A DNA stretch of 32,000 nt from an uncultured Chloroflexia bacterium (GTDB taxonomy: Bacteria; Chloroflexota; Ktedonobacteria; Ktedonobacterales; JADMIN01). Shown one piece after another: positions 6,797 through 19,148 of the stretch. The stretch is from the NCBI GenBank assembly GCA_963718915.1, contig CAVRAI010000013.1, positions 270,001 through 302,000 on the forward strand, read 5' to 3'. Position 1 is the first letter of the stretch. Each line of letters starts with the position of its first letter. The translations under genes were made by a program, and so were the position numbers. Below the pieces are notes generated by a model, which had not been told where the DNA came from, did no database searches, and worked only from the letters and a program-made list of their open reading frames with translations.

Positions 6797-6882
6797 CCAC
6801 AGTCGCGAATCGAAAGGCATTTGTCGTTTCAAACAGCAAAAAGACACTAGCCGAAGGCGAGGAAGCGTTACCCTGCTTACAT

Positions 6883-8007
6883 TTAGGCTGGACATGCCGC
6901 GTAGGCAAAGTCAAAGTACATAACGCCATCGAAGAGGCGGGCGGGTTCTGCATTGATTGGGCTCACTTGCAGCAACAAATTGTCACTCTGCACGACGGCG
7001 TCATCAACGGTGAAGATGTCCTTGCTGTAAGGTTGATCCGAGAAAAGGCTTGTACCATGTGCAGCCAATTGTCGCCGAGGTTCTAGATCAGCTCTAGCAT
7101 CTGCCTCATGAGCAAAGTGCAGTCCAATGAGACCTGAGAGATGTTTCAAGTCATACCGATAACCAAGCCCTAGCCACTCATATGGATGCAGTTCAGCCAC
7201 TCCTGACTTATCACTCTGCAAGATTGTCTGCATCTTTTGAGGAAGTGAGCTTAACGCTGAGCAAACATCTCCGCCCGGCATTATCTCAACAGAGAACAGG
7301 GTTCCCAGTCCGAGAACGAAGTTATGCAGGGTTGAATCGCTGGCAAGGTTAGGCGTTGCATTATTATACGCATCCAAAACCGCATGGATATCAGCCGTGT
7401 TACCAAAGATGAGCATCTTCTGTGTCGCCACAATAGCCGTATTGAGAATCGAATACCCATAGGGGCCGAACCAATCAGTTGAAATAGCTGAATAGTCCGA
7501 ACTACTATAGGTATAGATGGTTGCGCTCCGATACGAACTCGCTTCAAAGCCACGAGAGTTAAAATCTGCAATCAGTTGAGTCAGATTGAAGTCATTTCGA
7601 AGCTTGACGACGTAGGTTTCTATGGAAGAGTTACTGATCCCGGTCAAGGTTGACTCCCACAGATAATCGGTCCCATCAAATGACCAGGTTTTCGCTGGTT
7701 CTGTGAGAAGATCGCTTAGGCCGAACGATGACGCAGGTGCCTGCCGCGTGGCTAATGACGACAAAAACCGCCTGCGATCAGTGTCATTACTTTTGCTGGT
7801 GACGTTTTCAACACCTTCATATTCTTTGATTAGTGACCAGTCAGTGAATGCAAATGATGCTACATTCGCTGGGGCGAACGCGAGGGCTTCGGCTAGATCA
7901 GGTGCCACGGACGAAACAGGCGCTATATTCTGCTGAACACATCCAGAGAGGCCTGCAAGTGAACCAATAAGCACGAGGACTGCAATACACCCGAGTTTCA
8001 TCGACAT
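6883..8007 (-). CDS. Hypothetical lipoprotein encoded in a low-G+C island
   Basis: ORF 6883..8079. GGGAGA directly precedes ATG 8007 and lies 6 nt before ATG 8001. From 8001 the sequence is MKLGCIAVLVLIGSLAGLSGCVQQ, a lipoprotein signal with lipobox LSGC. I recognise no family motif in the remaining ~350 aa. The codon composition is visibly AT-richer than in neighbouring genes. Confidence 0.65.
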   Translation of the reverse strand: MSMKLGCIAVLVLIGSLAGLSGCVQQNIAPVSSVAPDLAEALAFAPANVASFAFTDWSLIKEYEGVENVTSKSNDTDRRRFLSSLATRQAPASSFGLSDLLTEPAKTWSFDGTDYLWESTLTGISNSSIETYVVKLRNDFNLTQLIADFNSRGFEASSYRSATIYTYSSSDYSAISTDWFGPYGYSILNTAIVATQKMLIFGNTADIHAVLDAYNNATPNLASDSTLHNFVLGLGTLFSVEIMPGGDVCSALSSLPQKMQTILQSDKSGVAELHPYEWLGLGYRYDLKHLSGLIGLHFAHEADARADLEPRRQLAAHGTSLFSDQPYSKDIFTVDDAVVQSDNLLLQVSPINAEPARLFDGVMYFDFAYAACPA

Positions 8008-8211
8008 TCTCCCACAGAAAGCAATTGCTTTCACTGATACGCGACAGTTGAAAACAAACAAAAAATCACCGTACCGCAATCAAGCGGATTGTCAGCATTT
8101 ACGACGTCCCCTGACGCATCCCCATTTCGGACACAGGTGACTGCCTGCAGAGAAAGGTCAACGCGCCAGCAACCGAAGCGGTTGTAAGATCGCATGAACC
8201 AAATATATGCT

Positions 8212-8266
8212 ACTGTACAATCGGCTTACACGTAAGAATACAGCAAAGTAGCAGGCATTGTACAGT
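8212..8266. repeat. 10-bp perfect inverted repeat (actgtacaat ... attgtacagt) with a 35-nt spacer
   Basis: The arms at 8212-8221 and 8257-8266 are exact reverse complements. They lie in the AT-rich spacer between the pgsA stop (8333) and the lipoprotein start. Confidence 0.8.
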
Positions 8267-8332
8267 GTAATTCACAGTCAACCAGATCGATACATCGGTA
8301 GATGCAAAAGACGATTGACTAAGCCAGGTGGC

Positions 8333-8947
8333 TTAATGGCTTTCGATGGCGGGGGCTGTGATAACACCCCATCCACCGCGCAGATATTCAATGGCGGAGA
8401 AGATCGTCCAGATGACCGCCAACAACAATACGATATTGGAGAGTACCAGCAAATAGTCCGCGAAGCTATCGGGCACCCCGCCAGTGCTCAGGCCCAACGG
8501 AAAAGCAGTCTGGCCGCCCAGTCCGGTCGCCAGCAGGATACCCCCTATTGCGAGCAGCGTGAGCAGCGTCTTCTGCTTGCCCCAGCGCCCCGCCGGGATC
8601 ACCACCCCACGCGCTGCCGCGAGCGAACGCAGCCCCGACACCAGAAACTCCCGCGCGACAATCACTATCACGATCCACGCGGGGACGAAGCCCACCTGCA
8701 CCAGCGCAATCAGCGCCGCCGTGACGAACACTTTGTCCGCCGTCAGATCGAGGAAGACGCCCAGATTCGAGACGAGATGGTAACGTCGTGCCAGACGACC
8801 GTCTATCGTATCAGTCACGGCGCCAGCCGCAAAAAGCACTGTGGCAAGTAACAACGCCCACGGCGTCTTGATCAGAATCAGGATGACCAGCGGAATGGTT
8901 ATCGCCAGCCGTGCGGCGCTGAGGATATTGGGCAGATTGCGCACCAT
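8333..8947 (-). CDS. pgsA: CDP-diacylglycerol--glycerol-3-phosphate 3-phosphatidyltransferase (CDP-alcohol phosphatidyltransferase family)
   Basis: Exact CDP-alcohol phosphatidyltransferase motif D-x2-DG-x2-AR-x8-G-x3-D-x3-D within DTIDGRLARRYHLVSNLGVFLDLTADK. The protein is 204 aa and polytopic. Confidence 0.8.
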   Translation of the reverse strand: MVRNLPNILSAARLAITIPLVILILIKTPWALLLATVLFAAGAVTDTIDGRLARRYHLVSNLGVFLDLTADKVFVTAALIALVQVGFVPAWIVIVIVAREFLVSGLRSLAAARGVVIPAGRWGKQKTLLTLLAIGGILLATGLGGQTAFPLGLSTGGVPDSFADYLLVLSNIVLLLAVIWTIFSAIEYLRGGWGVITAPAIESH

Positions 8948-10718: not shown

Positions 10719-12258
10719 ATGAAAGTCGTCACTGTCGCGGAAATGGTCGCGGTCGAGCAACGAGCCGAGCATGAATACGGGCTGGCTTCACCAACACTTA
10801 TGGAGCATGCCGGGCATAGTGTCGCCGAGGCAATCCAGGCACGGCTTGAGGGTGATGTCAACGGTGTCAGCGTGCTCGTACTCGCCGGACCCGGCAATAA
10901 CGGGGGCGATGGGCGGGTCGCGGCGCGCTATCTTGGCGAATGGGGCGCGCGCATCACCATCTATGACTGGAAGAGCGGCCAGCTCGAAGCCAACGGGCGT
11001 ACCGGCTCGCTGGGCGATGACCTTGCCGGGCTACACGATGTAATTGAGCAAGCGGATATCGTGCTGGACGCCTTGCTCGGCACCGGACACGCGCGGCCAC
11101 TTGCGCCGACGATGGCGGAGGCGTGCGCGCTGGTGGCTCACGAACGTGCACGACGGCCTGATCTCTATGTCGTCGCGGTTGACCTCCCAAGCGGACTCAA
11201 CGCTGATACAGGCGCGGTGGATCCAGGTACGCTGGCCGCCAACCTCACGGTGACGCTGGCCTATCCGAAAGTTGGCCTGCTGCTCTTCCCCGGCGCATCC
11301 TACATCGGCGAGCTACAAGTCGGCAACATCGGCCTGCCCGCCACCATGCCCATCGCTGCCGGACTAGAGATGCTCGACGACGAGATGATTGGCCCAACTG
11401 TGCCGAAACGGCCGCTGGATAGCAACAAGGGCACGTTTGGCAAGGCGCTAGCGCTGGCTGGCTCACCAAACTATATCGGCGCGGCCTATCTCGTCTCTGG
11501 GGCGGCTGCGCGTATCGGCGCGGGACTGGTGACGCTGGCGACGCTGCCGGAACTGGCGCCGTTCTACGCCACCATGTTGCCGGAAATCACCTACACGCTG
11601 CTGCCACCCGAAAGCGCCACCCCAGAAGCACGCGCGCAGGCTATCCTCGATCAGCTGGATAGCTATCGCGCGCTGGTGGTCGGGCCGGGGCTGGGGCAAT
11701 CGCAGGCGACTGCCGCGCTGCTCGAACGCCTCTTCGCGGGGCTATCCGCGCTCGTGCCTGAGCAGCGTCCTCATCTGGTGGTGGACGCCGATGGCCTGAA
11801 CAATCTGGCGAAGCTTGACCACTGGTGGCTTCGACTACCGCCAGGCGCTATTCTGACGCCCCACCCAGGCGAGATGGCACGGTTGCGCGGCGGGAGATCG
11901 GTATCAGGTGGCGGCCCTGATCGGCTGACCGTCGTACGGGAGGCGGCCCGCGAATGGGGGCATATCATCGTGCTGAAAGGAGCCTGTACCCTGATTGCGT
12001 CGCCCGCAGGCGTTCTACGCATCAATGGTGCGCCCAACCCGGCTCTGGCCTCCGCTGGTACTGGCGACGTGCTGGCAGGAACCACGGCGGGACTGCTGGC
12101 GCAAGGGATGGACGCCATACGATGCCGCTTGCGCCGCCGTCTATCTTCATGCGCTCGCGGGGCGCCGAATTAGCGCGCACCTTGGCGACGCAGGGCTGCT
12201 GGCAGGCGATTTACTGGCCGAGTTGCCACTCGCCCGTCAGGATGTGCAGCACAGATGA
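10719..12258 (+). pseudogene. nnr: Bifunctional NAD(P)H-hydrate repair enzyme Nnr (YjeF_N epimerase plus ADP-dependent dehydratase), with the frame disrupted near 12108-12115
   Basis: ORF 10719..12173 carries GPGNNGGDG (YjeF_N) and SAGTGDVLAG (carbohydrate-kinase-like C-domain). It ends in an Arg/Cys-rich junk tail, ...LLAQGMDAIRCRLRRRLSSCARGAPN. The expected C-terminus PYDAACAAVYLHALAG...LLAGDLLAELP is encoded in the +1 frame (ORF 11995..12258). Confidence 0.8.
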
Positions 12259-12464: not shown

Positions 12465-13379
12465 ATGGCCTATCTGGAAATTCGCATCGGGCAGGAGGTT
12501 CGCCGCATCTCGCTTGACCGCGACCACCTGCGGATAGGACGACTGGCGGACAACGACATCGTGCTGCGCGACGCGCAAATCTCGCGTCAGCATGCGGAGA
12601 TCCGTTTCGCAGCAGGCGAATGGCGCATTCTGGACCTAGGGAGCACCAATGGCCTCCATGTGAAGGGCAAGCGCGTGCGCGAGCACCGCCTTGGCAGCAG
12701 TGACGTACTTCTGCTGGCGCCGGGCGTCACCCTCTCGTTGCACGAAGGCGTCGCGCCACCAGATGCAATCTCGACGGTCGCGAGCGCCGCACAGTCGACC
12801 CATCTGCCTCAATCAGCCGTTGCCCCGGCTGAGCCGCCCGCTGAACCGTCCGCATTCGATATGCTGCACCCACGCTCGCCATTCGCCGACGATGAGCAGA
12901 TCTACATTCCACCAGGCATGGGTGTGCCCGCGCCGCCTACTCATTACAATAAGCCGTATACGCCTGGCGCATATGGGGGTTCGCCAGAGGCTGGCGGATA
13001 TTCACACTTTTCTGAGCAGTCGGCAAACACGACGTCGTCACAGTTTGATACGATTCCCGCCGGTGGATATCCCGCGCCTGTTGGCCCATTGACAAGCGGA
13101 AGCGACGGGCACGATCCATTCCGGCGCAGCAGCGTTAACGCAAACTCCGAGGCTTACCGCGCAACGGCTGGCCCAACCAGTACACTGTTACATGTCTGTC
13201 AGACTTGCGGGCAACTGACGGCGCCTGACTCCGTCTATTGTCAGAGTTGCCATCATTCCGTTGCGCGTGAGTGTCCGAATTGCCGACTGAGTCTCTTACC
13301 GATTCAGGATCGTTGTCCGCGCTGCCAGTCGCCGAACCCTGGGTCTGTACGCCGAGCGCATCGAGCGGCAGGCGCATAG
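12465..13379 (+). CDS. FHA-domain protein with a Pro/Gly-rich linker and a C-terminal double zinc ribbon
   Basis: The N-terminus LRIGRLADNDIVLRDAQISRQHAEIRFAAGEWRILDLGSTNGLHVKGKRV carries the canonical FHA G-R, S-R-x-H and N-G blocks. The low-complexity middle includes PPGMGVPAPPTHYNKPYTPGAYGGSPEAGGY. Four CxxC pairs (CQTC, CQSC, CPNC, CPRC) lie at nt 13197-13325. SD GGAGGG lies 7 nt before the ATG. Confidence 0.85.
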   Translation: MAYLEIRIGQEVRRISLDRDHLRIGRLADNDIVLRDAQISRQHAEIRFAAGEWRILDLGSTNGLHVKGKRVREHRLGSSDVLLLAPGVTLSLHEGVAPPDAISTVASAAQSTHLPQSAVAPAEPPAEPSAFDMLHPRSPFADDEQIYIPPGMGVPAPPTHYNKPYTPGAYGGSPEAGGYSHFSEQSANTTSSQFDTIPAGGYPAPVGPLTSGSDGHDPFRRSSVNANSEAYRATAGPTSTLLHVCQTCGQLTAPDSVYCQSCHHSVARECPNCRLSLLPIQDRCPRCQSPNPGSVRRAHRAAGA

Positions 13380-13520: not shown

Positions 13521-13751
13521 ATGCTGTCCACCGACGATGTGACGCTAATCTCATCCGACGTTGCCGCATCCGCATATCTGTTCGCCGGTCCCGACGACGA
13601 TGAGAATCTCGATGATGATTTCGACGACGACATGGATGATGACGACCTCGACGACGAATGGGACGATGAGCTCGATGACGAAGATGAAGAAGACGAAATC
13701 GAGTGGGATGAAGAGGAACTGAGCGATCTAGATGAAGAAGAAATGGAGTAG
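13521..13751 (+). CDS. Small polyanionic protein (76 aa; 42 Asp/Glu; no Lys/Arg/His)
   Basis: SD GAGGAGG (13506-13512) lies 8 nt before ATG 13521. The translation is MLSTDDVTLISSDVAASAYLFAGPDDDENLDDDFDDDMDDDDLDDEWDDELDDEDEEDEIEWDEEELSDLDEEEME. It is followed by a terminator-like hairpin. The overlapping minus-strand ORFs are Ser/Arg low-complexity mirror images. Confidence 0.6.
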   Translation: MLSTDDVTLISSDVAASAYLFAGPDDDENLDDDFDDDMDDDDLDDEWDDELDDEDEEDEIEWDEEELSDLDEEEME

Positions 13752-13823: not shown

Positions 13824-13871
13824 CGCCTCACCTATCCGGTTTCACCCGGCCGGGTGAGGCGCTTTGTGTTT
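13824..13871 (+). terminator. Candidate rho-independent terminator after the acidic-protein gene
   Basis: A 9-bp stem pairs cgcctcacc (13824-13832) with ggtgaggcg (13853-13861). The 20-nt loop contains self-complementary ccgg elements. It is followed by cTTTgTgTTT. Confidence 0.45.
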
Positions 13872-13894: not shown

Positions 13895-13924
13895 TTGACG
13901 AACGCCCTCAGCAGTGGGCATACT
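13895..13924 (+). promoter_or_regulatory. Candidate promoter for the SWIM-protein operon (TTGACG-18 nt-CATACT)
   Basis: Hexamers at 13895-13900 and 13919-13924, about 68 nt upstream of ATG 13992 and just downstream of the terminator-like hairpin. Confidence 0.35.
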
Positions 13925-13991: not shown

Positions 13992-16247
13992 ATGGCGACA
14001 TCCGAGCAGAGTCCGTCGGCGGCATTGTTGCGACTGCGCGCCGCCGACGTCGTTCGTGTCTGCGGGCTGAACGCCGCTGCGGTCGGACTGGAACTGGCGT
14101 CGAATTACTGTGTCGTGGCCAGTCGCCGCGAAGGCAGTCGTTTGCTGGCCACAGTGATGGCCGGAGCGCCACGCACGGTGTGGGTTGAGGTCACCGATGG
14201 CGTTGAGGCGATGGAGTGGGTGTGTGACTGCGCTCACACGGGGCCACTGGCCTGTGAGCATATCGCCGCGACGCTCTCCGCGTGGATAGCGCACCCATCT
14301 GACTTCCTGGTCAAGGATTCTGAGAACGTTTCTGACGCAGCGCCCGAACCGCCTGCTGAGCGCACGTCCTCGCCTCAGAGTGTTTCCGATAGCGCCACTC
14401 TCGCCATGCCAGGCGTGACAGCTTATAGCGTCGAATCGCTGACTCTCGCCGACGCGCTAGCACGGATGAACGACGCCGATGTGGAAGCGATAGCACGTCG
14501 CATCATCGGGCCAGAAACACCAGGCGATACGGTAAACATCTATCGCACGATTGTTGCAGCGCTTGGCGACCCAGGGCGTCTGCAAGCGCTGCTCAAGCGC
14601 CTCGAACATCCCGCGCGGATACTGCTCACGTTAATAGACCTTGCGGGCGGAGCCATCACTACAGCAGATCTTGAGGGGCTGGCAATCCGTATCGGGCGGC
14701 CATTGAGCGCGGTGCAGAGCGATATCGCAGTTCTGGAGCGGCATGCGCTCGTGCTTCCTAAGTTGCCATCGAGCGCTCCGAGCCACCATGGGCCGGGGGC
14801 AACGTGGCGTCACGTCGCAGGCTGGCGCATAGCCGACGAGGTGCGACAAGCGCACGCACTGTCACTGCCGCTTGAGGCACTGCCCACCCAACGTGAGACG
14901 CGCCTCGCGCCGCCACTCGCCGACCCATCCGGCGCTCCCCCCCATGTTGCGCGTTGTACGCCACGTGCGCTTTGCCTGGCGCTGGCGCTGCTTGCTCATG
15001 CTCCACCCCCGCTCGGTCTACCGCGTGAAATAGCCGCTGTGGACAACGACGCCAGGCCTGTCCTCCAGGGCGCTAGCCCGCTCGCTCCCGGAGAGATTGT
15101 GCCCGGTCGGCTCAACGAACTCGCCCGCAATGCTGGTATCGACGTGGATGCGGTTCGAGTCGCCCGAAGGCTCTTACGCCAGGCGCGCGAGCAACATCCC
15201 GCGCCGCCGATTGCCGATCTGGCGCACGTGCCAGTAGCGGAGCGCCCGCTTGTCCTGCGCAACGCATTCCGGCGGTGGTTGCGTGCTGACTCCGTGGCCG
15301 AGTTGCTCGATCTCGAAGCGTCCACGGATCTTCATGTACGCTATGCGACGACACATCCAGCGTTTCGCCCGGCGGCGATTGCCAGTGAGGTAAGCAACGC
15401 GCGTCGATTTATAGCCCGCCTGCTCACTCAAACTCACCCGGACACCTGGTACTCACTTGAGGATTTTGTCACGCTGGTGTGGCAGATTCGCCCAGGGCTG
15501 CTACGCGGCCAGCAGCACACCTGGGCCACACCTGCCTGGTGGTTGGAGTCTGCCAACGAGAAGCGGACATTGCAGCCAACTGTACGCGACGACTGGATGG
15601 CAGCGGAAGGCGCATTCATCCTATCACTGCTTACCCGTACCTTCGCCGTATGGGGCGCGCTTGATCTGGCCGTGCGCGAGGATCGCTCGACGGTCGCCTT
15701 TCGCCTGACGTCATTCGGCGTGTTCTTGCTTCAGCGCGCCAATGATCCAGCGGATGCCTCGCTAGCGGCGTTATGCGACTCCGATTGGGGACCTCCGGTG
15801 TTGCCGCTTCGCGAGGGTGTGCTGGCGGTGCAGCCGCTGGCTGCTGGGATCACTCTGCTCGACGCGCTGGCTCTCTGGGCAAACCCAACGGCGGTGAACG
15901 GGAAGCGCCTCATCTATACACTTTCGTCTGACCGCGCTTGCGCCGCTTTCGATCAGCAACTCTCGCCCGCATCACTGATTGCCATGCTTCGTCCACTGCA
16001 TAGCCGGGCAGCCGAAAACATCGCCAGTCAGTTGACCCAGTGGCAGGCGGAGTGGGGACACACACGCATCACGACTGGATTCACCTTGCTGGAAGCGAAC
16101 GATGAGGCGACGCTGGTAGAGGCGCTGTCTGCCGCTCCTGATATCGCCGCGCGCTGCCGCCGCATCGGGCCGACGCTGGCGCTGGCGCATCCCAGCGATG
16201 CTGAGATCCTTCGCACGCTGCTCGCGCGGCGCGGCTTCACCGTGTAA
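13992..16247 (+). CDS. SWIM zinc-finger protein with a C-terminal XPB/Ssl2-N-terminal-like (helicase-associated, DRD-like) module; no ATPase motifs
   Basis: CxCx7CxH at aa 78-90 (WVCDCAHTGPLACEH, nt 14223-14261) follows the usual SWIM-family N-terminal region. The C-terminal ~145 aa (nt 15813-16244) are paralogous to the C-terminus of the next ORF and resemble the XPB N-terminal domain as I recall it. No GxxxxGK[ST] is present. Confidence 0.7.
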   Translation: MATSEQSPSAALLRLRAADVVRVCGLNAAAVGLELASNYCVVASRREGSRLLATVMAGAPRTVWVEVTDGVEAMEWVCDCAHTGPLACEHIAATLSAWIAHPSDFLVKDSENVSDAAPEPPAERTSSPQSVSDSATLAMPGVTAYSVESLTLADALARMNDADVEAIARRIIGPETPGDTVNIYRTIVAALGDPGRLQALLKRLEHPARILLTLIDLAGGAITTADLEGLAIRIGRPLSAVQSDIAVLERHALVLPKLPSSAPSHHGPGATWRHVAGWRIADEVRQAHALSLPLEALPTQRETRLAPPLADPSGAPPHVARCTPRALCLALALLAHAPPPLGLPREIAAVDNDARPVLQGASPLAPGEIVPGRLNELARNAGIDVDAVRVARRLLRQAREQHPAPPIADLAHVPVAERPLVLRNAFRRWLRADSVAELLDLEASTDLHVRYATTHPAFRPAAIASEVSNARRFIARLLTQTHPDTWYSLEDFVTLVWQIRPGLLRGQQHTWATPAWWLESANEKRTLQPTVRDDWMAAEGAFILSLLTRTFAVWGALDLAVREDRSTVAFRLTSFGVFLLQRANDPADASLAALCDSDWGPPVLPLREGVLAVQPLAAGITLLDALALWANPTAVNGKRLIYTLSSDRACAAFDQQLSPASLIAMLRPLHSRAAENIASQLTQWQAEWGHTRITTGFTLLEANDEATLVEALSAAPDIAARCRRIGPTLALAHPSDAEILRTLLARRGFTV

Positions 16248-16271
16248 TCAGGTGGCAGAAGAGAGGAAGCC

Positions 16272-17510
16272 ATGCCGACAGATGACGCGAAAGCCGCGCC
16301 GGACCTTGAAGAGGCTGTCACCTTTCAGCGCGACCTGTATCTCTACTGGTGGGCCGCGCGCGAACTTGGCGAACTTGCGCTGACCTCGCGTGGCTTCCTC
16401 ACTCGCCATTCACTACGACGGGTGCGCTCCCAGTGGCCAATAGCGGGGGACGACCGTCCCGAGGCGAACGATCCACGGCGCTACTACCTCCGGCGACTGC
16501 TGGAGCGCCTGGGACTCTTGCGCGTGCTATCCGAGCCATCTAATGCATCGGCGCATGGCGGGCTGGTGGCGGCGGACACCCAGATGATGGAGCGCTTCCT
16601 TGCCCATCCACTCTCAGAGCGACTGCGCATCTGCACGCGCCTCTGGGTAGGAGGCGGCTGGTGGCCCGATGGCAAGCCATCGAGCGTTGCCATCGGATTG
16701 CACTCGCCCATTCAGCCCCGCATCGCGCTGGCGCGTCGGCGTCTGATCGAGATACTGGCCGTGCTGGAGCCGGGGAGTCTGGTCGAGATTCCAGGCGTCC
16801 TATTGGTTGAGGACCACGCGCCGCGCATTATCGGCGCAACGACGCGCCGCAAGCCGCGAGATATCGCCGACGAACGCAACGAGACAATGCGTGCGGCATT
16901 AGCAGGGCCGCTTCAGTGGATGGGGCTTGTCGTCAGACGTGACACCAACGGATCGGGAGAACGGCTGATGGTAGCGAGCCACGGCATGCTGGCGCTGCGC
17001 AGCGAATCGGACGACACGACAGTCCAAGAATCCCCTGGACGGGTCATCATCCAGCCCAATCTGGATATCGTGGCCTACCAGCCACTCACCGCGCCAACAC
17101 TTTCCACGCTGGATAGCTGCGCCACACGTCGTTCACTGGATCGTGTCGCACACTATCGCCTGACCGGGAACGATGTGACGCGGGCACAACACGATGGCTG
17201 GTCGGAAGACGATATCGCACGGAGGCTGGAGGCGCTCACAGAAGGTCCGCTACCGGGCAACGTCCGCGTGCGTCTGGCCGACTGGACACGCGCCGCCAGC
17301 CGCATCCGCCTCACTCCACAGGTGACGTTGCTGTCCACCTCAACTCCGGCGCTGCTCGATACGCTGCTCGCGGACCGCGCCGCGCGTGGATGGGTGCTCC
17401 GCCGCATGGGGCCAACACTGGCGCTGGTGCAGACAGACAAACTCGAATCACTACGTCACTGGCTGCTGGCGCGCGGCGAATTGCCGGCGGTTGAGTCTGC
17501 TGAGCCATGA
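16272..17510 (+). CDS. Paralogous helicase-associated (XPB/Ssl2-N-terminal-like) domain protein without a helicase core
   Basis: ATG 16272 lies 24 nt after the upstream stop and is preceded by GAGAGGAAG. The C-terminal ~155 aa (nt 17037-17507) read GRVIIQPNLDIVAY...VAHYRLTGNDVTRAQHDGWSEDDIARRLEALTEGPLPGNVRVRLADW...RRMGPTLALVQTDKLESLRHWLLARGELP. They align by eye with the end of the 751-aa protein (RRIGPTLALAHPSDAEILRTLLARRGF). No Walker A motif. Confidence 0.65.
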   Translation: MPTDDAKAAPDLEEAVTFQRDLYLYWWAARELGELALTSRGFLTRHSLRRVRSQWPIAGDDRPEANDPRRYYLRRLLERLGLLRVLSEPSNASAHGGLVAADTQMMERFLAHPLSERLRICTRLWVGGGWWPDGKPSSVAIGLHSPIQPRIALARRRLIEILAVLEPGSLVEIPGVLLVEDHAPRIIGATTRRKPRDIADERNETMRAALAGPLQWMGLVVRRDTNGSGERLMVASHGMLALRSESDDTTVQESPGRVIIQPNLDIVAYQPLTAPTLSTLDSCATRRSLDRVAHYRLTGNDVTRAQHDGWSEDDIARRLEALTEGPLPGNVRVRLADWTRAASRIRLTPQVTLLSTSTPALLDTLLADRAARGWVLRRMGPTLALVQTDKLESLRHWLLARGELPAVESAEP

Positions 17511-17540: not shown

Positions 17541-19148
17541 TCATACCGGAGGATTGCTGATCGGCTCCAGCAGAAAGAGCGCGCCGTTTTGATCGAAGGT
17601 GGTGACCAGAGTATAGCGCGCGGCAACCCAGTCACGGAAGCCAGGAAGCAGATCGAAACGACCACTGGCGAAGAGGATGACATGAATACGGTTGCGTGTG
17701 ATGTAGTCTTCCAGTTGCGATGCCATCAAATAACCACTCGTAATGCGCACCGCCGAAGTGTCCACCAGTTGCGGCGGCACATCGCGGTTGGCCAGCGCCG
17801 CCGCATACTGGTCGTCGGATAGCACGACCTCGTCAGGCGCGCTGACGCCTTGCAGCGCGAGCGCCATAGAGAGCGTGCGGGCTGGCAGTGACGCATTCGC
17901 TGCGACATTTTGACTCCAATTGAACGCCAACCCCGTAATGCACATTACCACCAGCACAACAAGCGTGACTGTCTGAGCCAGGCGCTGGCGAGATGGCTCA
18001 GTGGACGCCTGCCATACGGCATAGACGCCGCAACCGGTAACCAGCGCCAGAGCGGGGCTGAGTAGCACGATATGATGCTCTAAAAGCGGCTGCTGTCGCA
18101 GGAGTGTGATAAAGGCCACCAGCGCCCACAGGATAAGCGGCGCGCTCACCCACATGCGTCGCCATACAACTACAATAATCGCGGGCACAGCGATAAAGAC
18201 CAGCCGAGCATCCCATAACGTCTCAACGATGAGCTGGAGATTGTCTCGCGAGGATTGGCTATCTGCCTGGGCAGCTGCGAGATGAAACCGCACGACCTGA
18301 TCGTAGACGGTTCCCAGTTGGCCTATGTACGGCAACAGAATGACGACGATAGCGCCGAACAGACCAGCAGCCAGCCACCCCAACGTCGGCGCGATCTGCC
18401 GTAGACCATCCCATACCTCGGATCGCGGTGGCCATCTGAGATTCCCGCCTTTATCGAGCCAGCGCCGGGCTAGTGGCACGCTGAGATACAACACAATCGG
18501 GACGAGCGCGGCAATAGCGAAGAGTTTGATAAGCAGCGCGCAACCCAGCAACACACCAGACCCAACCACCAGCCAGGTCCGACGCCTCCCGCTGGCGCGC
18601 ATTGCCAGCACTGCGCAGGCCACTGCCCAGATTTGCAACGCAACCGACGGTAGCTCTGCCTGCAACGTATGCGCGCCGTGCTCATAGAGTGGGTCAAGCG
18701 CGAGCAAGAGACATGCTACCGCGCCAATGGCGCCATGTCCCAACGCGCGCCCGGCGACATATGTGCCCGCAATACCTGCCAGCGAGAAGACGATCAGCGC
18801 TAACCGCGCCGCGCTAAGGCTCTGACCGAATATCATGTAGAAGGGATAAACGCTGAGCAAAAAGAGGGGCGGCTGCGAGCTGAACACGCTGCTAAAGAGG
18901 GGATGACCATCGGCCATGGCACGCAGGGACTGCCAATACACACCTTCATCGTAGTCACTGATCTGCCCTTGCAGCGTCTGTAGCGCCAGAACGAGCGCGA
19001 GCACACCTGCGCCGAGCGCAACCCACCCTGCCGGTGAGATATGTCTGATCCGCTCCACGAGCGACAGCGAATGGCTACCATGCCCTGTGTGCCGCGATGG
19101 CCGCCTCCGAGTGCGCGCCGTACCTGACGCCAACGTGTGCCCCCTCAT
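17541..19148 (-). CDS. Glycosyltransferase family 39 / ArnT-PMT-like polytopic membrane glycosyltransferase
   Basis: 535 aa with many predicted TM segments. The first extracytoplasmic loop carries SDYDEGVYWQSLRAMADGHPLFSSVFSSQPPLF, the DE-containing GT-C motif typical of GT39/ArnT-like enzymes. Confidence 0.65.
   Translation of the reverse strand: MRGHTLASGTARTRRRPSRHTGHGSHSLSLVERIRHISPAGWVALGAGVLALVLALQTLQGQISDYDEGVYWQSLRAMADGHPLFSSVFSSQPPLFLLSVYPFYMIFGQSLSAARLALIVFSLAGIAGTYVAGRALGHGAIGAVACLLLALDPLYEHGAHTLQAELPSVALQIWAVACAVLAMRASGRRRTWLVVGSGVLLGCALLIKLFAIAALVPIVLYLSVPLARRWLDKGGNLRWPPRSEVWDGLRQIAPTLGWLAAGLFGAIVVILLPYIGQLGTVYDQVVRFHLAAAQADSQSSRDNLQLIVETLWDARLVFIAVPAIIVVVWRRMWVSAPLILWALVAFITLLRQQPLLEHHIVLLSPALALVTGCGVYAVWQASTEPSRQRLAQTVTLVVLVVMCITGLAFNWSQNVAANASLPARTLSMALALQGVSAPDEVVLSDDQYAAALANRDVPPQLVDTSAVRITSGYLMASQLEDYITRNRIHVILFASGRFDLLPGFRDWVAARYTLVTTFDQNGALFLLEPISNPPV

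Follow-up and report, generated by a model that had tools for sequence, protein, structure and literature searches.

Paralogous p52/Tfb2-like proteins encoded away from any XPB gene in Ktedonobacterales: candidate accessory subunits of an unlinked XPB

We describe here a pair of adjacent genes, termed A and B, on contig CAVRAI010000013.1 of assembly GCA_963718915.1 from a member of Ktedonobacterales (Chloroflexota); the stretch analysed comprises 32,000 nt and is called the window, and its positions serve as coordinates unless another locus is named. A preliminary description of this DNA had pointed out that A encodes a SWIM zinc-finger protein, that A and B end in a similar module, and that no helicase gene accompanies them. 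Indeed, the list of open reading frames (ORFs) and the sequence confirm both ORFs, their 24-nt spacing and the Shine-Dalgarno sequence on which a probable operon had been proposed:

13992..16247, + strand: gene A, 751 aa; SWIM domain and predicted p52/Tfb2-like scaffold, without ATPase motifs
16248..16271, + strand: spacer between A and B, 24 nt, containing the Shine-Dalgarno sequence AGAGAGGAAG
16272..17510, + strand: gene B, 412 aa; predicted p52/Tfb2-like scaffold, without ATPase motifs

This spacer, together with the adjacency of the two genes in ~19 of 21 related loci, suggests that A and B are co-transcribed. No Walker A, GK[ST] or DExx motif was found in either protein by a sequence scan, and among the window ORFs of at least 50 aa no helicase gene was detected with a hidden Markov model (HMM) of XPB and none with a Dna2-like query. 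The earlier statement that neither the two proteins nor their surroundings provide a Walker A motif or an ATPase therefore holds.

Protein B is basic (pI 9.3, 12.4% Arg) and carries a PF13625 domain, which is of the type of the XPB N-terminal domain and of the "clutch" of p52, followed by a further small domain:

17043..17408, + strand (B aa 258-379): PF13625 domain; Pfam 62.4 bits, cut-off 34.2, E 5.4e-17
up to nt 17471, + strand (B to ~aa 400): small C-terminal domain continuing after the PF13625 domain

PF13625 was found in all 85 members of the B family that were tested, and the homologues of B, which number at least 194, are labelled Ktedonobacterales and titled "helicase-associated domain-containing protein" where they are named. 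Bacterial XPB N-terminal domains match positions 264-407 of the B HMM (E 5e-13 to 6e-7). In the reverse direction, the XPB HMM matches B through the N-terminal-type domain only, and the XPB model of NCBIfam (NF045503) gives 14.5 bits against a cut-off of 610, again confined to the region of the N-terminal domain. When A was searched as a whole and in three pieces against Pfam to E 10, and also against NCBIfam, no SWIM, no PF13625 and nothing else usable was obtained; the Pfam assignments foreseen in the preliminary description are thus borne out for PF13625 in B, and A itself gives no match for either domain. PF13625 is nonetheless matched by five of 21 members of the A family (best E 2.1e-7), and full-length A homologues reach 35-55 bits for it.

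Homology between the C-terminal parts of A and B had been proposed over ~145-155 aa. BLASTP aligns only the last 76 aa (E 1e-5), and profile-profile comparison of the two families with hhalign extends the match to A aa 466-749 against B aa 150-403 (258 columns, 96% probability, E 4.3e-9). The homology is therefore real, and since the hhalign span covers ~285 aa, the paralogy extends roughly twice as far as first thought:

15387..16238, + strand (A aa 466-749): region paralogous to B; clutch-like at ~aa 603-690 and p52-C-terminal-domain/p8-like at ~aa 698-746, from hhalign and secondary structure

In both A and B, conservation is highest in the clutch and C-terminal modules. The shared module had been likened to the damage-recognition domain of XPB and hence taken as a DNA-recognition module, a reading that we abandon. 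PF13625 maps to aa 97-168 of human XPB and aa 146-249 of yeast Rad25 and corresponds to the XPB N-terminal domain, which is found in XPB alone and bears no structural relation to the damage-recognition domain of archaea (Balasingham 2012, PMC3353954). This domain has the p52 clutch fold, and the two form a pseudo-symmetric dimer (Greber 2019, PMC6422496). As the XPB N-terminal domain that pairs with p52, PF13625 is thus known as a protein-pairing and not as a DNA-recognition module.

AlphaFold2 models built on the family alignments gave a predicted local distance difference test (pLDDT) score of 83.7 and a predicted template modelling score (pTM) of 0.70 for A, and 82.1 and 0.75 for B. When these models were compared with the PDB by Foldseek, as had been suggested, p52/Tfb2 was the best match for both proteins, ahead of XPB. 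For B, fungal, yeast and human p52/Tfb2 chains came first (6trs_B at E 3.8e-9; also 8ebs_D, 6nmi_D and 7o4i_2) with a probability of 1.00 over 360-433 columns, whereas XPB chains followed at E ~3e-6 over ~170 columns only. For A, p52 chains were likewise first (8ebs_D, E 3.8e-8, probability 1.00, ~620 columns), with XPB at E 0.07 over ~170 columns; the p52 chains in these alignments comprise 289-452 residues. Also, the extreme C-terminus of A matched the 66-residue Tfb5/p8 (5oqj_5) with a probability of 0.96, a target-normalised template modelling score (TM-score) of 0.55, but E 1.4. The architecture of p52 has been described as an N-terminal domain, two middle domains, the second of them being the clutch, and a C-terminal domain folded like p8, with which it also dimerises (PMC7708078). 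Such a domain order can be accommodated by the secondary structure mapped for A and B. The resemblance described earlier as a C-terminal module is present as such, and in the predicted structures both whole proteins are p52/Tfb2-like. A and B are accordingly best explained by the models as paralogous, non-catalytic scaffolds of the p52/Tfb2 type, with a winged-helix region, a clutch and a small C-terminal domain.

In terms of sequence families, the Tfb2 family of Pfam (PF03849, cut-off 34.5 bits) was not matched by A or B. It scores below the cut-off in eight of the 85 B-family members (best E 3.3e-4) and at 12.8-22.7 bits in the orthologues from XPB operons described below, and is passed only by a natural A-B fusion, P0226 (42.5 bits, model positions 248-353). 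A PDB sequence search with the family profiles of A and B gave only a non-significant match to Rad25. Among the Pfam annotations at the loci examined, none of the p34, p44, p62, XPD and p8 families occurs; a separate p8 may be replaced by the C-terminal domain of the paralogue.

The N-terminal part of A is not shared with B and contains the following elements:

13992..14306, + strand (A aa 1-105): SWIM-type zinc-finger domain; beta-sheet, then a predicted helix from aa 89
14319..14435, + strand (A aa 110-148): linker rich in Ser, Thr, Pro, Ala and acidic residues; predicted disordered, pLDDT <50
14439..14516, + strand (A aa ~150-175): SAP/Rho_N-like helix-extended-helix motif LTLADALARMNDADVEAIARRI, borderline

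The CxCx7CxH signature noted previously is present at nt 14223-14261, which encode CDCAHTGPLACEH (C78-D-C80-x7-C88-E-H90). W76, C78, C88 and H90 are invariant in the A family alignment, and C80 is replaced in a branch of 40-46% identity; all four ligands are intact in the window protein. The Pfam SWIM family (PF04434, cut-off 19.6 bits) is matched neither by A nor by 21 members of its family, and the SWIM call for A is unsupported by the HMM score of A itself. A relative of A, P0269, passes this cut-off (22.1 bits) and also has PF13625. An exhaustive profile search of 1.84 billion representatives gave 1446 relatives at E <= 1e-3, among which is a tier of 740-800-aa proteins including MCL5959156.1, named "SWIM zinc finger family protein [Chloroflexota bacterium]". 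In this Chloroflexota SWIM family, a canonical CxCx6CKH is nearly invariant, and the family profile matches the SWIM region of human ZSWIM8 (E 1.4e-4) as well as MarR-type winged helices (E 0.009). By hhalign, the A family matches the Chloroflexota SWIM family from aa 12 to 750 of A (100% probability, E 1.5e-71, 712 columns), and WVCDC...ACEH of A falls on CxC...CKH of the relatives. From this match and the alignment of the motif, A is a divergent member of a SWIM-p52-like family. The linker is poorly conserved and of variable length across the alignment, and the SAP-like motif aligns with L..LR.IA..RGW of the relatives, in which SAP or Rho_N lies just under the Pfam cut-off. The homologues of A (n=65) bear informative taxon labels that are all Ktedonobacterales, except for one mislabelled Nitrososphaerota.

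The gene neighbourhood of the relatives connects these proteins to XPB. In all four examined Chloroflexota loci with a SWIM-p52-like gene (L028, L029, L032 and L033), a tight operon was found with XPB first, the SWIM-p52-like gene second and a further gene third. XPB in these operons has 582-617 aa with PF13625, ResIII, ERCC3_RAD25_C and Helicase_C domains, and the SWIM-p52-like protein has 756-768 aa. The third gene encodes a complete PF13625 protein of 761-774 aa in three of the four loci; in L029 the contig stops within this gene, for which there is no Pfam record. The stretch of the third protein from aa ~187 to 614 is recognised by the full-length B HMM (E 1e-54 to 1e-65), and the protein has in addition a SAP-like N-terminus and a second, C-terminal PF13625-like repeat. 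Also, an 838-aa protein with PF13625 and WYL domains adjoins XPB in Streptomyces (L030), and its clutch region is recognised by both the A and the B profile (E 5e-18 to 5e-19). When metagenome contigs were scanned with an XPB alignment, at least one partner gene was found at 43 of 80 XPB loci, and at 18 of the 28 loci with at least 3 kb on both sides; two partners 3' of XPB were the commonest arrangement. Judging from these sequence comparisons, A and B descend from the two accessory genes of an operon of XPB, SWIM-p52-like and p52-like genes, and B of the window lineage has lost ~190 N-terminal residues together with the second PF13625-like repeat (~150 C-terminal residues). At these loci homologues of A and B are thus accessory genes beside XPB, which is largely the outcome that the preliminary description had named as speaking against its own interpretation, and the specific puzzle of a "helicase-less" pair is mostly explained.

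In the Ktedonobacteria, the helicase-less arrangement itself is conserved and is not a one-off rearrangement. We compared ~21 distinct loci by a genome scan and contig look-ups, and the XPB HMM found an XPB gene at none of them. The comparison of neighbourhoods suggested in the preliminary description therefore gives a double answer, with the pair conserved in this lineage and its homologues elsewhere adjoining XPB. A and B adjoin at ~19 of the 21 loci, the exceptions being L014, which has B alone, and one assembly with A and B on separate contigs. Also, the order recurring across the ~21 loci places two further genes 5' of the pair, both of which lie in the window as well:

12465..13379, + strand: gene for an FHA and double zinc-ribbon protein, 304 aa; Pfam FHA E 1.4e-18
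13521..13751, + strand: polyacidic ORF, 76 aa; 42 Asp/Glu, no Lys/Arg, pI 4.05

In GCA_021324535.1, which is labelled "Proteobacteria bacterium" and is clearly of the Ktedonobacterales type, A and B are non-adjacent and both are kept:

L001 5921-8362: A, after a ketoacyl synthase gene
L017 2293-3696: B, after secA

At L034 of Ktedonobacteraceae, the pair follows prmA-rsmE without XPB, FHA gene or acidic ORF. At L031 (10001-14041), the two genes are naturally fused into P0226, a protein of 1346 aa that is A-like at aa 2-736 and B-like at aa 766-1184 (E 2e-69) and then carries a third PF13625 repeat; this contig is probably from Ktedonobacteraceae, and prmA-rsmE and recO are the neighbours of the fused gene. 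Such a fusion, and the fact that the two genes so persistently stay adjacent, argue for a physical cooperation of A and B.

A motor encoded elsewhere had been named as one option, and this option is now favoured by XPB genes that have no partner gene within up to 10 kb. The clusters of these partner-free loci were labelled through exact-sequence look-up. For L055 and L061, the cluster name is "DNA repair helicase XPB [Ktedonobacterales bacterium]", and the G+C content of L061 (0.611) equals that of the window; for L048, L049, L052 and L101, it is either "DNA repair helicase XPB [Ktedonobacteraceae bacterium]" or "helicase [Ktedonobacter sp.]", with a G+C content of 48-51% in L048, L052 and L101. 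The N-terminal domain is complete in these partner-free XPBs. Going by the cluster names, the order encodes XPB at an unlinked locus. Taken together with the descent from an XPB operon, the most fitting reading of the pair is as accessory subunits of XPB that would act, as a p52-type heterodimer, on a helicase encoded at an unlinked site; we give this reading a probability of roughly 0.55.

In such a mechanism, the clutch and C-terminal modules of A and B would join the two into a heterodimer, in the way that TFIIH pairs the XPB N-terminal domain with the clutch of p52, and the C-terminal domain of p52 with p8. This heterodimer would then dock onto the unlinked XPB at its PF13625 N-terminal domain and direct or regulate the activity of XPB as a DNA translocase in repair, with DNA contacts possibly contributed by the SWIM finger, the SAP-like motif and the winged helices as well as by B, which is basic. 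The FHA protein, as a phosphothreonine reader, might regulate the complex, for which the Ser/Thr/Pro-rich linker of A would be a possible target, and the polyacidic protein might regulate it as a DNA mimic or as a chaperone of B.

Several points weigh against this assignment. As for the fold, TM-scores to p52 are low (0.16-0.36), which we ascribe to hinged domains being oriented differently, the sequences of A and B give no signal for the N-terminal domains of p52, and the likeness to p52 outside the clutch is taken from predicted structures. A is silent in Pfam and NCBIfam, and its assignments come from its family and from profile comparisons. The interactions of A with B and of either with XPB are proposed by analogy, and the repeat that B has lost could mean a lost tether to XPB. 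In addition, XPB was seen in metagenome-assembled genomes labelled Ktedonobacterales and is only presumed for the window's own genome, and the Ktedonobacterial XPB is directly preceded, with gaps of 6-54 nt, by a conserved gene for an alpha/beta-hydrolase of ~225 aa:

L048 9046-9723: alpha/beta-hydrolase gene 5' of XPB
L101 2578-3255: alpha/beta-hydrolase gene 5' of XPB
L055 9197-9928: alpha/beta-hydrolase gene 5' of XPB
L061 6137-6808: alpha/beta-hydrolase gene 5' of XPB

A PAC2-family gene lies 3' of XPB in Ktedonobacterales loci.

The genes upstream of the pair bear on a different explanation. The FHA gene (ratio of nonsynonymous to synonymous substitution rates, dN/dS, 0.10-0.12) is found 5' of A in most Ktedonobacterales loci that possess an upstream flank, and its product scores 25.3 bits for DZR of Pfam, under the cut-off of 27.3. 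The acidic protein next to A, which had been mentioned in the preliminary description, is real and conserved. It consists of 55% Asp/Glu with Trp/Phe within the acidic runs and has a short hydrophobic N-terminal motif ending in GPD[DE]DE, and its ORF is preceded by a strong Shine-Dalgarno sequence, AGAGGAGG, 8 nt 5' of the ATG. A Pfam search of this protein gave no match; its role might be to mimic DNA or to chaperone the basic B. A hyper-acidic ORF was present in all 11 intervals between the FHA gene and A that we examined, in both branches of the family, and also 5' of A in L018, and was not found at the XPB-linked loci or the Ktedonobacteraceae loci examined, nor where A and B are split. 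Equivalents are the following:

L003 1959-2249: hyper-acidic ORF
L012 7244-7471: hyper-acidic ORF
L015 7192-7542: hyper-acidic ORF
L018 2798-3085: hyper-acidic ORF
L026 7014-7442: hyper-acidic ORF

The pair might accordingly be a stand-alone complex that binds DNA or senses DNA structure independently of XPB, under the control of the FHA protein, through phosphothreonine, and of the polyacidic protein. Such independence would fit with these new conserved neighbours being confined to this lineage, with the lack of a helicase in the window and at any of the ~21 related loci, and with the different tight neighbour of the Ktedonobacterial XPB; furthermore, A keeps its SWIM, SAP-like and winged-helix elements, and B is very basic. 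The main argument for it comes from the clutch-type units, which number four in the ancestral trio (two in the third protein and one each in XPB and A) and two in the window pair, B being without the second PF13625-like repeat and the SAP-like N-terminus of its XPB-linked orthologues; this fits a model in which two pairings were reduced to one. On the other hand, the best conserved modules of A and B, the clutch and the C-terminal domain, are known solely for pairing among XPB, p52 and p8, the order still has XPB with its N-terminal domain intact, and p52-like proteins functioning without XPB have no precedent. We therefore regard independence from XPB as possible, though rather unlikely. In a related scenario, bacterial XPB would normally belong to a TFIIH-like sub-complex with two p52-like subunits held by PF13625 pairings, a counterpart or ancestor of the XPB-p52-p8 lobe, and the Ktedonobacterial dimer would have been released from it, because B lost its spare clutch repeat, and rewired with the FHA and polyacidic proteins as a helicase-independent, phospho-regulated DNA-binding complex. 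This scenario is doubtful, and we put it forward only tentatively.

Another helicase has also to be considered. In one branch of the family, a Dna2-like protein of 980-1040 aa with Dna2, PD-(D/E)XK, AAA_11 and AAA_12 domains is encoded 3' of B, directly or after one antisense gene, and this SF1B helicase-nuclease, encoded elsewhere in the genome of the window, might be the motor partner of the pair. The linkage occurs in five loci (L003, which lies on the same contig as L019; L006; L016; L021; and the P0049 contig) but not in the branch of the window, nor in L015, L023, L025, L026 and L027, and an antisense gene usually intervenes. The Dna2-like protein matches neither the A nor the B profile and has no PF13625 among its Pfam matches, which leaves it without a pairing domain, and the partner in the ancestral operon was XPB. 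Given the missing clutch-like domain and the inconsistent linkage, we rank this possibility low. In L006 and the P0049 contig, the Dna2-like gene is followed by a gene for NA37, a YejK-like nucleoid-associated protein, and then by one for an uncharacterised protein of 575-595 aa; this group may be a separate DNA-maintenance cluster:

L006 5376-8312, 9151-10260 and 10257-11984: Dna2-like cluster
L003 7577-10516: Dna2-like gene
P0049 contig: Dna2-like cluster

Because XPB is missing from the locus, B is shortened and the second SWIM cysteine is lost in one branch, the genes could be viewed as decaying, functionless remnants of an XPB operon. The ORFs are, however, intact in dozens of lineages down to 40% identity, the gene order is conserved and the models are confident. 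In comparisons with four related genomes, A has a dN/dS of 0.18-0.25 and B one of 0.15-0.22, next to 0.12-0.17 in holA, and this purifying selection implies that both are functional genes; the decay of the pair is strongly disfavoured. A part in anti-phage defence or in a mobile-element system is hardly more credible and would be very improbable. SWIM and helicase-associated modules do occur in some conflict systems, and a WYL domain is fused to the Streptomyces relative, but PADLOC gave no match for A, B or the FHA protein, and the window annotation has no integrase or other mobility gene adjoining the pair. The locus lies instead in stable housekeeping synteny (nnr, holA, purC, rplS), with ~84-87% nucleotide identity to a related genome over ~21 kb.

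As to the remaining surroundings, the next gene 3' of B is the convergent glycosyltransferase recognised before, now assigned to PMT_2, and is followed by holA. Signals between the polyacidic ORF and A are of low confidence, and a consensus scan for promoters and terminators around the genes gave counts not above those in shuffled sequence. Apart from the pair, a few further features of the window were noted:

17541..19148, - strand: PMT_2 glycosyltransferase gene, 3' of B
13839-13860, + strand: terminator-like hairpin, from the consensus scan, low confidence
13895-13924, + strand: promoter-like TTGACG-18-CATACT following the hairpin, just 5' of A, from the consensus scan, low confidence
10719-12255: nnr, the NAD(P)H-hydrate repair gene
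6797-8336: segment of 1.54 kb with low G+C content (0.48 vs ~0.61)
6883-8079, - strand: 398-aa ORF in this segment
3650-4768, + strand: 372-aa ORF adjoining purL; no match in Pfam

The reading frame of nnr shifts near 12103-12110 relative to an intact 512-aa orthologue in L004, which is either a frameshift or a sequencing error. The low-G+C segment is missing from L004, otherwise collinear, and is probably a recent insertion; its ORF has a probable signal peptide or lipoprotein-like N-terminus and no Pfam match. In L004, conversely, the PIG-L and nnr genes are separated by an inserted TnpB gene of the IS605 type.

Among known systems, p52/Tfb2 of TFIIH with its partner p8/Tfb5 is the closest to A and B. 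In eukaryotes, p52 is the TFIIH subunit that regulates the XPB translocase, binding the XPB N-terminal domain by its clutch and stimulating the XPB ATPase. It is the best structural match of the predicted models over most of the p52 chain and has the same order of a helical/winged-helix region, a clutch and a small C-terminal domain; its clutch and the XPB N-terminal domain are members of one sequence family, relatives of A and B are encoded with XPB, and neither A nor B is an enzyme. In contrast to TFIIH, the present proteins are bacterial, form a set of two paralogues instead of p52 and p8, and include a SWIM finger and a SAP-like motif in A; Tfb2 of Pfam is undetected in them, other core subunits are not at the loci examined, and XPB is not co-encoded in this lineage. 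The Chloroflexota operon of XPB, a SWIM protein (~760 aa) and a "helicase-associated domain-containing protein" (~765 aa) has the two partner genes in the same order. The window differs from it in that XPB is not at the locus, B is trimmed and the FHA and polyacidic genes are added upstream, and some members of the A family have a degenerate SWIM motif. The actinobacterial XPB of Streptomyces L030 also has a large PF13625 protein, which there adjoins XPB; it is, however, one partner and not two, has WYL and no SWIM, and is distant outside the C-terminal half. Rv0861c/Rv0862c of M. tuberculosis presumably represent this same arrangement. Bacterial SWIM proteins that are paired or fused with SNF2 ATPases share the N-terminal SWIM type of A, and the SWIM-family profile weakly matches the SNF2 proteins P0352 and P0353; in A, however, the SWIM finger is joined to a p52-like scaffold, and the motor of the ancestral operon was XPB, an SF2 helicase of the ERCC3 type. 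Archaeal Bax1 is an accessory protein that is encoded beside XPB and modulates it (PMC13024598). Unlike A and B, which have no nuclease motifs or matches, Bax1 is a nuclease that binds the thumb motif and the second helicase domain of XPB, and it lacks PF13625.

The function of bacterial XPB has been called elusive (2026 review, PMC13024598), and in the main biochemical study the protein was judged likely to act without a complex resembling TFIIH (PMC3353954). In our literature search, no description of p52-like partners of bacterial XPB was found and no publication dealing with these proteins, and public annotations are generic, with A and B given as "hypothetical protein" or "helicase-associated domain-containing protein" and the Chloroflexota relatives of A as "SWIM zinc finger family protein". 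About half of the sampled bacterial XPB genes are nonetheless flanked by one or two large proteins with a p52-clutch domain, which suggests a TFIIH-like partnership.

In conclusion, the locus is best read as encoding p52-type XPB accessory scaffolds that have been unlinked from XPB and remodelled. If this inference is true, bacterial XPB would provide a simple three-protein system for the regulation of a translocase by p52-type scaffolds, and ideas on where the XPB-p52-p8 lobe of TFIIH came from could be put to the test. Within that system, the locus of the Ktedonobacteria is an informative variant, with scaffolds but no motor gene, a trimmed B and new putative regulators, and its interest lies in the wider implication that a TFIIH-like XPB-p52 module may exist in bacteria.

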